DNA of 48,504 nucleotides. It comes from a virus (Duplodnaviria; Heunggongvirae; Uroviricota; Caudoviricetes). The stretch lies in the IMG/VR virus record IMGVR_UViG_2718218100_000006; one strand, given 5' to 3'. Of this stretch, positions 3,001-6,000 are shown piece by piece; the stretch's first letter is position 1; each line of letters begins with the position of its first letter. A program made the position numbers.

Positions 3001-6000
3001 GCGCATCTCTGCCTGAATTTCGGGCCATTTGGCACCAGGCTTACATTTATGCTTAACCCACCCGATGGCATGCAGCTTAAGCTCCGGATACATAGCGTTA
3101 ACTTCTGGCATTTTCATCAACGCTTCAACGATATGGCCGTCGAATGTTGCCATGTCTTCCTGCAACAATTCCTGTGCGCTAATCACCATATCAACAGTGA
3201 TGTTTTCACATGTGTCGAACTTAACCATGACAGCGTTCTGTACTTCAGGGGCCAGGTTGTCAAAAGTGACGTTCATCGGATCGGATTCAGTCTCGACCGG
3301 GACAAAGGAAGCAGACGCCTCATCCCAGCGGTTTTCCTGCATATATTCAGCATCCCAGGAATCGAGGGCAGGGCGGGGTATACCGGGTTTATCCTCGCAA
3401 ACAAGAAATTTATAAGCGCAGTCCTGAGCAGCCGGATAATGTTCCAGGAATTGCCAGTGAAATTTTGCGCGGGCGCGACGTTCATCACCGGCTTCAATGG
3501 CAGTGGCTACAGCGACGGCACCTTCTTCCTTTATTGCCTGTTCGTCCGGAATGGCGGCGCAAATAAAGACTTTACTCATTTTGTTTTACCTCATTACAGA
3601 TTTAAGGGTGAACAAATCCCTGCCATTGCTGGCATATAAGAATGAAATCGGATGTTTATTACGGAACTGTTTTAAAGACCTGCCGGGATTTCGTTATTAT
3701 CCTGGTGAATAACTTTATCGACCGGGTAACAGTTACCGGGAATTTTCTGTTCGGTTGCTGCAGTCACACACTCCTGCATTGTCCTGTGAACACTGACTGC
3801 AATATCAACTGGCTCTCCGGAAACAAGAAAAACTGTCAGAACAAGTGCAAATGCTGTATTCATTGCCAGCATCCTTTTTGTATCGGACGTAAACGGGCCA
3901 ACATTGAAAGAATGCATATTTTATTTAATAGCTCCCGTTCGTGTTTTCTCTTGTTAATGGCATCTTCAGTAAATACAGGGTTACTGATAGTGACACCAAT
4001 TTCAAAACAACCTTCAGACGTATTAACGTTTGGTAATAACGTTTCCATTATCGCGTCCTCAACAATGAATTTTGTGATGCGGTGCCTGGTGCCTCCAGGT
4101 GACGTTAACCAGTTAACAATTAACGCCGGATACAGAGAATCCCCCCATAACACTGTTTTTGGTTTTAACTGTTCCGCGTGCGCTCAGCCGCATTCACCGC
4201 ATCACAAAATTCACTTTAAAAAGGGCGGCAGAGCAGTCACGGAGTAAAACTGATGCCGCCAAACGTCACCAGAAAATTGATAACAGAGGGCGTTGCAGCG
4301 GGGTTGTCACTTAAGCGTATGGTCAACCTGACAACCCGGTGTCCTCAACGGGGGAAGGAATAACCCCTCCATACTTACCGCCGCGCCATTTCGCGGATTG
4401 CCACAACCGGAAGCACACGGTCGACGAAAATTTAACGACAGGCTATCTATGAACCAGCTACCTCGCCGTGCGCTTTCGCGTTATGGTCTGACTTTTCAGG
4501 GAAATATCCTTTCAGTAAACTGTCAGTGCCGTATGCTCACCCGTGTCCGGCGCACGCACTCCACCTCACCCGTGGAGAACTCCTTAATTACCAACCTTAG
4601 CTTCGTTGGTTAGCTATTAACGCGGGTATGTAATCATTCTGGCAATGCTTAATGCCGCTGCTTTTTCCAGATTGGTGATATCCTGCTCCAGAGCGGACAG
4701 ATTTTCAGCCTGCTTAGCCCTGGCTTCATTGGCCCATTTCAGATCCTGCGCTGCATTAATTTTCTGGTGCATCCACTCATAAAGTTCATCATCGGTATAG
4801 TCTGGCGCGATGATGACGGGTTCTCGTTTCTGCATGTCGGCTCCTTGTGGTTAGCGTTGCCTGCTTTTAACCACGTCAGGCGAGGTGGTATCCTCTGAGG
4901 GGTCTGTTACTCGAGAGGAAATTGGTTATGAATACAATCAAGTTTTCTTGCCCAGAATGTGGTGGCGAAGTCTTTGACACATCCTTTAAGCCGCAGGGCT
5001 CTGACAGTTTCGCGGGAGCCATCTGCAAAAATTGTGGTCACCTTGTAACTGAAGATGAGTCCTCGCAGTTCGATGACGAAATCGTTGACAATATCTTCGG
5101 TGCACTCACCAGAGACTTTCTGAAGTAAAGGCGCATACCGCTTAGTTACCGCTCTGATAACTCTTACCTGTCCTGCAATGGCGCTGATGTCAATATAAAG
5201 CGCCATTGCTGCTTCTTTGCCGATCCCGGGATGCCTTCCATTCTGATGTTTGACTTCGCCCACTGAGAAACCCTCTGTTTCCCCTTAACGCCGGGGTAGC
5301 GGAACAAAAACCTGCTGCATAGTTATTAAAGTTGAACCCTGCCGTCATGTTCATACGCCTCGGGCTGGCTACTTAACCCCTGACCACTGCCGGGTAACTC
5401 GAAGTATTTCCCTGCGTTCTGTGGGGCGGGGTGGGTTGGTATTTTTAGTTTAATAAACATTAAACTTAAGTCAAGTAAAAACTAAACCGCGGGACATAAC
5501 AAACACAACGCTTTTGATAAAGTCGTTGCGGTTGTTATGTTTCTATTGGTAGTGAAAGTTAGGGAAACTGGCGTCTTGCGTGGATCACGTTTACTACTTC
5601 AACGCTTGATGTTGTTACGCGGTATAGAATTATATAGTTAGGGTGGGCTACAATCTCACGCAAGCCAGGTACTCTGTCGCTTGGTGGGTATAAATACGGA
5701 TGTTCGGATAACGGCAGCACACAACCCCTTAATCGCTGCCATAAGCGTTCAGCCGCATCTATGTCGAAACGAGCAATATAACTAGTTATATCATCTAGGT
5801 CGGTATCTGCGCTTTCAAGCCATAACACGGGTAACATTTTACTGCTTGCTCCGTTCCTTGCGCATCTTAGCAAAGCGTTCTGCCATTCTGCGCTCAACTT
5901 CGTCATGGGGAATTGCTGGGCGCGGATCTGCAAGGCTCGTTGCTACTTTCGCACGCAGCCATTCGTTGTAACTGTTTTCTTGTTCAATGGTTTCAAATTC

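Follow-up and report, generated by a model that had tools for sequence, protein, structure and literature searches.

The DNA stretch analysed here (the window) comprises the 48,504 nucleotides of the IMG/VR virus record IMGVR_UViG_2718218100_000006 (Caudoviricetes), in which a preliminary description had singled out two overlapping open reading frames (ORFs) of about 62 amino acids as translationally coupled early genes, the second of them encoding a secreted peptide. We found that this pair is very probably dicB-ydfD, the distal genes of a dicBF-type operon (ydfC, the small RNA (sRNA) gene dicF, dicB and ydfD) in a defective Qin/CP-933-type lambdoid prophage of O157-type Escherichia coli. The identification follows from protein family matches, from the detection of DicF by Rfam, from collinearity with the K-12 Qin prophage and from the annotation of identical DNA. 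None of this is new as such: dicB, ydfD and dicF are textbook cryptic-prophage genes of E. coli K-12, and they have been published for O157-type prophages as well (PMC5069750). The assignment gives the region its right names and mechanisms, and it makes the first ORF, not the second, the one with the Kil-like or exclusion role; mildly new are a predicted β-β-α-β fold for YdfD and the conserved coupling geometry of the two genes.

Homology searches assigned the first frame, ORF1, to DicB. Its product (62 amino acids, beginning METLLPNVNTSEGCF and ending GCWQ; whole sequence METLLPNVNTSEGCFEIGVTISNPVFTEDAINKRKHERELLNKICILSMLARLRPIQKGCWQ) matched the Pfam family DicB (PF05358) over the full length, with E = 1.7e-37 and 127.4 bits (cut-off 27), residues 1-62 aligning to profile positions 1-62 of 62, and matched the NCBIfam model NF049927, 'cell division inhibition protein DicB', with E = 3e-39 and 132.7 bits (cut-off 100). 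The frame also matches PHROG 1251, and DNA identical to it carries the dicB annotation in RefSeq. Only the DicB family was matched in the Pfam and NCBIfam searches, with no sequence relationship to Kil, and a search of solved structures with DicB returned a best match at chance level (E = 0.21). Compared with DicB of the K-12 Qin (Kim) prophage (b1575), the window protein has the same length and 55 of 62 residues are identical, and its gene occupies the same position, after dicF and before ydfD, behind the same Shine-Dalgarno and leader sequence.

The second frame, ORF2, was assigned in the same way to DUF1482/YdfD. Its product (63 amino acids, beginning MNTAFALVLTVFLVSGEP and ending PAGL; whole sequence MNTAFALVLTVFLVSGEPVDIAVSVHRTMQECVTAATEQKIPGNCYPVDKVIHQDNNEIPAGL) matched PF07358 with E = 3.7e-25 and 88 bits (cut-off 25), residues 4-61 aligning to positions 1-57 of 57, and PHROG 1092 with E = 2e-37; no NCBIfam model matched YdfD. 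The K-12 Qin counterpart is YdfD (b1576; PF07358, DUF1482; paralogue family name YebW), to which the window protein is identical at 59 of 63 residues, the exceptions being S3T, V6A, M33V and I57N; the ATGA overlap with dicB and both cysteines are common to the two. In the K-12 annotation the genes are 'cell division inhibition protein DicB' and 'lysis protein' YdfD, and RefSeq names the window allele 'DUF1482 family protein' and alleles nearer K-12 'lysis protein YdfD'. The hydrophobic N-terminus (residues 4-14) and the two cysteines that had been remarked in the second ORF are indeed there: the conserved N-terminal FALVLTV core of the family is present, and the protein has exactly two cysteines, C32 and C45, of which C32 is invariant in the family, as are L7 and G16, and C45 occurs in 15 of 16 aligned sequences.

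Consistent with this assignment, window positions 4835..3600 are collinear with ydfC-dicF-dicB-ydfD of K-12 Qin at 96.8 % identity, and the DicF sRNA was detected 174 nt upstream of dicB as a full-length match to its Rfam model (76.2 bits, gathering threshold 48, E = 3e-16), folding into a GGCGGC...GCCGCC hairpin followed by UUUUU.

Both frames are real genes and not chance ORFs, given their family matches, their low ratios of nonsynonymous to synonymous substitution (dN/dS), the conserved ATGA and the Shine-Dalgarno sequences. The dN/dS values were about 0.1-0.3 for the dicB and ydfD frames in diverged pairs (NG86, eight loci), and a Shine-Dalgarno sequence precedes each start codon, GAGGA 7 nt 5' of the dicB ATG and AAGGA, lying within dicB, 8 nt 5' of the ydfD ATG. 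The two frames overlap as had been described, the three bases of the ORF2 ATG (3863-3861) and those of the ORF1 TGA (3862-3860) running together as ATGA. That the true gene might instead be a 201-amino-acid ORF on the plus strand (3642-4247), with the two small ORFs as its shadows, has next to no probability: it is the longest ORF across the region in the window and is open too in the near-identical mEp460 and Ryan0026 copies, but it is broken by one, three and two stops in K-12, GN02050 and 442/2, respectively, where both minus-strand ORFs stay open, and it is the minus-strand frames that carry the strong family matches and the dN/dS signature of selection. We therefore rejected the antisense ORF as a gene. 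A second rejected candidate concerns the start of ydfD, for which the mechanical ORF has 81 amino acids (3917..3672). This N-extended form would provide a K-R n-region and thus a textbook signal peptide; in E. coli GN02050, however, the extension is closed eight codons upstream and has no ATG, and the Pfam model begins at the 63-amino-acid form. Because the extension is closed in this diverged relative, the 63-amino-acid start is the conserved one.

DicB acts through MinC, whereas Kil does not. Lambda Kil resembles DicB in being a small protein of the leftward early operon, and Kil and Rac KilR are described as small early-left division inhibitors which block FtsZ-ring formation in a ZipA-dependent manner (PMC3961180). 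In K-12, DicB together with ZipA brings MinC to FtsZ rings, with the result that division stops (PMC4967827), and DicB also blocks, via MinC, the ManYZ-dependent entry of phage DNA, giving about 100-fold more resistance to λ and blocking other ManYZ-dependent phages such as 434, a phenotype on which deletion of ydfD has little effect (PMC6832061). The suggestion that a Kil-like division inhibitor or an exclusion factor is encoded here therefore holds for the first ORF, DicB (PMC4967827, PMC6832061), and fails for the second, YdfD, while the broader expectation that small early-left products are host-targeting factors agrees with the K-12 literature for both proteins. A PADLOC search returned no defence-system match for DicB or YdfD.

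The window DicB would share these activities, as judged from its K-12 orthologue; against such a transfer stand the seven substitutions, namely K2E, Q36H, V47L and four within the last eight residues. In K-12 DicB the N-terminus including Leu5 is essential and the last eight residues are dispensable, and a residue is needed at position 2, the type of which is reported not to matter (PMC4967827). The window protein keeps Leu5, and both K2E and the four tail changes sit where that study reports tolerance.

For YdfD, the published K-12 work describes fast lysis on overexpression, which requires growing, dividing cells and is prevented by co-expression of DicB or SulA (PMC8835842). The protein was reported to bind and inhibit IspG, a cytoplasmic Fe-S enzyme of the methylerythritol phosphate (MEP) isoprenoid pathway, so that cell-wall synthesis is starved, with binding supported by pull-down, size-exclusion chromatography (SEC), isothermal titration calorimetry (ITC) and in-vivo Förster resonance energy transfer (FRET), and with lysis relieved by ispG overexpression or by the IspG product 4-hydroxy-3-methylbut-2-enyl diphosphate (HMBPP) (PMC8835842). 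The same study found that loss of even 1-5 terminal residues weakens killing, that a fragment of residues 1-28 is the IspG-binding part, and that Cys-less mutants still bind IspG (PMC8835842). In addition, CRISPR-Cas has been reported to hold down ydfD mRNA in K-12 (PMC9782134). The window YdfD can be expected to act as its orthologue does, and N2 and L63, mutated in the K-12 protein (PMC8835842), are kept in it. Two points count against this expectation: four residues differ, and the IspG mechanism comes mainly from one paper, while a hydrophobic N-terminal fragment can be sticky in pull-downs.

As a lysis factor YdfD resembles the single-gene lysis proteins phiX174 E, Qβ A2 and LysM, since in each case one small protein causes lysis by blocking the supply to cell-wall synthesis and not by degrading the wall, and growing, dividing cells are needed (PMC8835842). 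Unlike them, YdfD is located in the early-left operon of a double-stranded DNA lambdoid prophage and has as its reported target a cytoplasmic isoprenoid enzyme, IspG; it also lacks a clear transmembrane helix of the protein E type.

In K-12 the operon is transcribed as a 1,608-nt ydfABC-dicFB-ydfD RNA under DicA/Rem control (PMC10448788). By analogy with the K-12 literature, the repressor of the window prophage would keep the leftward operon off, and derepression would yield a polycistronic RNA from which DicF is released by processing, transcripts that read past the DicF terminator carrying dicB and ydfD. DicB with ZipA would then send MinC to the FtsZ rings and stop division, the same MinC interaction blocking ManYZ-dependent phage entry, and YdfD would inhibit IspG, starve wall synthesis and lyse the cell unless DicB is present. 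Regulation may nevertheless differ from that of Qin, because other DNA takes the place of ydfA and ydfB, a PaaA2/ParE pair separates the repressor-like gene from the promoter-like region, and an IS1203 element sits in the immunity region.

The ATGA junction was identical in all eight dicB-ydfD loci compared, including that of GN02050, in which the block is only 74-76 % identical to the window. The overlap and the Shine-Dalgarno sequence inside dicB probably couple translation of ydfD to that of dicB, in which case YdfD would be made only along with the protein that neutralises its lysis; this coupling is read from geometry, and the Shine-Dalgarno sequence of ydfD itself could allow independent initiation. 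To our knowledge, the possibility that such a conserved stop/start overlap of a lysis gene with the gene for its neutralising division inhibitor works as a control device has not been examined before. The two genes have diverged to different extents, synonymous divergence (dS) being 0.10 for dicB and 0.62 for ydfD against strain 442/2 and 0.29 and 1.29, respectively, against E. albertii (comparison of loci L005 and L012), and this uncoupling points to a recombination joint at the dicB/ydfD junction or close to it, as is typical of lambdoid mosaicism.

The idea of a secreted peptide is at odds with the published work and with the family-level evidence, and, as to the fold and location of YdfD, a β-strand predicted by AlphaFold2 (AF2) disagrees with the description of a 'hydrophobic membrane domain'. 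Residues 4-14 (AFALVLTVFLV) are hydrophobic, with an 11-residue Kyte-Doolittle mean of up to 2.95. The n-region before them is M-N-T, without the Lys or Arg that gives a Sec signal peptide its positive n-region, and among the 16 aligned family sequences, the window protein included, 13 have no Lys or Arg before the hydrophobic core and two have Asp or Glu there. The segment is also the lowest-entropy part of the family, with a mean column entropy of 1.52 bits (1.8-1.9 in the rest). The sequence of a signal peptide normally drifts, and such strong conservation is unusual for one. AF2 modelled YdfD as a compact β-β-α-β domain in which strand 4-12 pairs with strand 18-26, followed by a helix (29-38) and a strand (44-48); the predicted local distance difference test (pLDDT) was 76-83 over five models and 85-91 for residues 1-50, from a 16-sequence alignment with 34-81 % identity, and a shallower alignment gave the same topology. 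A Foldseek search of BFVD with this model returned nothing at E <= 0.001, the only matches being uncharacterised small phage proteins, and a search of solved structures found none for YdfD. The hydrophobic N-terminus is thus modelled as a structural β-strand or interaction surface, which is more likely than a cleaved export signal, and export of YdfD is unlikely in view of the family charge, the conservation, the AF2 fold and the published cytoplasmic target.

Several observations weigh against this placing of YdfD. By sequence alone the protein looks like one with a signal peptide, having an h-region of 11-13 residues, a V-S-G|E motif that obeys the -3/-1 rule and two conserved cysteines; the flanking charge balance slightly favours an N-in/C-out orientation; and AF2 was run on an alignment of 16-19 sequences of a 63-amino-acid protein, which does not make for strong evidence. 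In addition, Masuda et al. reportedly described in 2016 the N-terminal 22 residues of YdfD as a hydrophobic domain that associates with the membrane, a description at variance with the AF2 model as well.

If YdfD were exported by Sec and cleaved after Gly16, a disulfide-bonded mini-protein of about 47 amino acids with two cysteines would act in the periplasm on the envelope. The 4-14 segment is indeed too short for a classical transmembrane helix and has a typical h-region length, V14-S15-G16 before E17 fits the cleavage rule, G16 is invariant and the two cysteines are invariant or nearly so, and the phenotype is one of envelope failure and lysis (PMC8835842). We nevertheless consider export very improbable: besides the missing positive charge in 13 of 16 family sequences, with two acidic there, the putative signal is the best conserved segment of the family and is built by AF2 as a confident β-strand within the domain. 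Trimming of 1-5 N-terminal residues weakens lysis and the 1-28 fragment binds IspG, Cys-less mutants still bind this enzyme, FRET was seen in vivo with cytoplasmic IspG, and rescue was obtained with ispG overexpression or HMBPP (PMC8835842). The periplasmic mini-protein is therefore unsupported, having against it the published cytoplasmic target, the uncharged n-region, the conservation and the AF2 strand; of the two findings that were to speak against the original proposal, absence of a signal peptide and absence of conservation in related prophages, only the former is favoured by these data, since conservation is very strong.

An uncleaved YdfD with its N-terminal 22 or so residues in or on the inner membrane and its C-terminal domain facing the cytoplasm is a serious possibility, and reportedly the view taken by Masuda et al. 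in 2016, although one that we do not favour. It would account for the hydrophobic N-terminus, YdfD is listed among 'membrane lysis proteins' in PMC9782134, and the target IspG is cytoplasmic (PMC8835842); apart from the AF2 fold, such an anchor is compatible with everything proposed above for dicB-ydfD. On the other hand, only about 11-13 consecutive residues are apolar before S-G-E-P, E17 and D20 fall inside the 22-residue segment, AF2 gives a strand-turn-strand and not a helix, and GST-YdfD was handled as soluble in SEC and ITC (PMC8835842). A further reading, which we offer tentatively and consider somewhat doubtful as a whole, is that YdfD is a soluble β-β-α-β mini-domain of about 50 residues, neither exported nor anchored, whose N-terminal strand forms a core or interface, and that across the family such proteins belong to a two-gene cassette of early-left operons consisting of a lysis factor and a partner that serves as antidote or timer. 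In the AF2 model the N-terminal strand has two apolar faces, as would suit dimerisation or docking to a target, and the general cassette is suggested by the YdfD-type gene always lying downstream in an overlapped pair with a varying partner, DicB in Escherichia and unrelated small ORFs elsewhere.

Of 5426 complete E. coli genomes, 4204 (about three quarters) carry the 401-nt dicB-ydfD block, some of them in as many as six copies, and its annotation is always dicB plus DUF1482/ydfD; phages such as mEp460_ev081 (99.6 %) and Tritos have the block too, with the same annotation. The YdfD/DUF1482 family is small: among 1.84 billion proteins it has 36 representatives at 50 % clustering, and at 90 % it forms 282 clusters, those with a named source all coming from Escherichia or Shigella. 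A scan of contigs with the close YdfD alignment likewise recovered only Escherichia and Shigella, plus one contig labelled 'MAG: Veillonella parvula' (MAG, metagenome-assembled genome; locus L011), whose dicB-ydfD products have 85-87 % protein identity to those of the window; almost certainly this contig belongs to an Escherichia prophage and was mis-binned.

In contrast to these loci, no DicB could be recognised upstream of two distant YdfD members (48 % and 39 % identical; loci L014-L017), whose DUF1482 genes overlap by TGATG or ATGA with another small ORF in that position. In locus L017 the DUF1482 gene lies between an immunity region with a helix-turn-helix (HTH) repressor and a YdaT-type gene and an ExoVIII/Rv2179c-like exonuclease gene, and in L014 a GamL-family gene lies downstream of it. 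The pairing of DicB with YdfD is thus lineage-specific, since the distant members have other upstream ORFs, and what is general for the YdfD family is a place in the left operon as the second of two small overlapping genes. Variation was also observed among loci that retain both genes. In E. coli GN02050 (locus L004, 2148-3389) a diverged dicB-ydfD pair (74-76 % identical) has a Rha-family regulator gene directly before it and no structured leader between, with a dicF-containing sequence further upstream (1634-2124), an arrangement indicating that the pair travels in more than one operon context.

The features of the leftward operon are listed in Table 1. The spacer between dicF and dicB folds with a long-range stem in which GUGAAUUUUGUGAUGCGGUG pairs with CACCGCAUCACAAAAUUCAU, enclosing about 150 nt and ending immediately 5' of the dicB Shine-Dalgarno sequence; a 251-nt fold (4290..4040) had a minimum free energy of -95.1 kcal/mol (z = -4.9), and the region gave a sub-threshold match to Rfam STnc100 (39.7 bits, gathering threshold 47). 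This region may act on dicB through processing or translational control. Separately, about 90-110 nt of this leader (window ~4040-4150) matched at 97 % the records of Aeromonas phage AP1 and Actinobacillus phage vB_Apl-pPE4; these matches are unexpected for those hosts and may be due to E. coli prophage DNA that entered the records by contamination or chimeric assembly.

Table 1. Positions of dicB, ydfD and associated elements in the window.
Feature	Coordinates	Strand	Description	Basis
ORF1 = dicB	3860..4048	minus	62 aa, cell-division inhibition protein	Pfam PF05358, NCBIfam NF049927, RefSeq
ORF2 = ydfD	3672..3863	minus	63 aa, DUF1482 / lysis protein YdfD homologue	Pfam PF07358, PHROG 1092
ATGA start/stop overlap of dicB and ydfD	3860..3863	minus		Direct sequence reading
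dicF	4223..4274	minus	52/53-nt DicF antisense sRNA and intrinsic terminator hairpin	Rfam RF00039
dicF-dicB spacer (dicB leader)	4049..4222	minus	Structured	Folding
ydfC	4617..4835	minus	72 aa, upstream gene of the same operon	RefSeq YdfC on identical DNA, PHROG 1744 (1e-39)
pL/dicBp-like promoter-leader region (probable)	5278..5442	minus		Similarity
Exonuclease gene (context)	1108..3579	minus	823 aa, directly downstream of ydfD	Pfam Rv2179c-like 3'-5' exonuclease (3.6e-66)

Positions 5442..5278 are 97.6 % identical to the intergenic region upstream of a ydfA-like gene in strain GN02050, and 28 nt of them (5305..5278) match the K-12 ydfA leader. By this similarity the segment is the probable promoter-leader of the leftward operon. 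At the other end, five relatives likewise have an exonuclease gene after ydfD, and in the distant locus L017 one is located further downstream; the exonuclease of the window also has a partial match to NCBIfam exodeoxyribonuclease VIII.

The placement of the two genes in an early-left operon, as initially proposed, is reasonable, since they lie between the immunity region and the exonuclease-xis-int genes and all are leftward. The order in this direction is a repressor-like gene, PaaA2/ParE, the promoter-like region, ydfC, dicF, dicB, ydfD, the 823-amino-acid exonuclease, xis and a frameshifted int. Over its first 12 kb the window is 100 % identical to a prophage adjoining ynfA in a strain of the Shiga toxin-producing E. 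coli (STEC) type, and a position next to ynfA is the same chromosomal neighbourhood as that of Qin in K-12. The prophage carrying dicB-ydfD is probably defective. According to RefSeq on identical DNA, the integrase gene (~67-749, minus) is frameshifted and truncated; the excisionase gene (784-1035, minus; DUF1233, 1.6e-31) is intact.

Compared with K-12 Qin, the operon lacks ydfA and ydfB in its upstream part, and the immunity region is a different one. An element of the insertion sequence (IS) family IS3, of the IS1203/IS629 type (6589-7802, plus), containing an ALIL pseudoknot at 6870-6986 (programmed frameshift; 121.5 bits), lies within the immunity region between a gene for a 123-amino-acid repressor-like protein (6422..6051, minus) and a YdaS-like HTH gene (7851-8135, plus); the divergent regulatory region is split by it, and the leftward dicBF operon could be controlled differently as a result. 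Positions 5559-6030 (minus), which separate the repressor-like gene from the promoter-like region, encode a PaaA2-type antitoxin (1e-19) and a ParE-family toxin (1.9e-16), and in place of ydfA and ydfB there is a plus-strand gene (4928-5128) for a 66-amino-acid zinc-ribbon protein ('ECs_2282 family').

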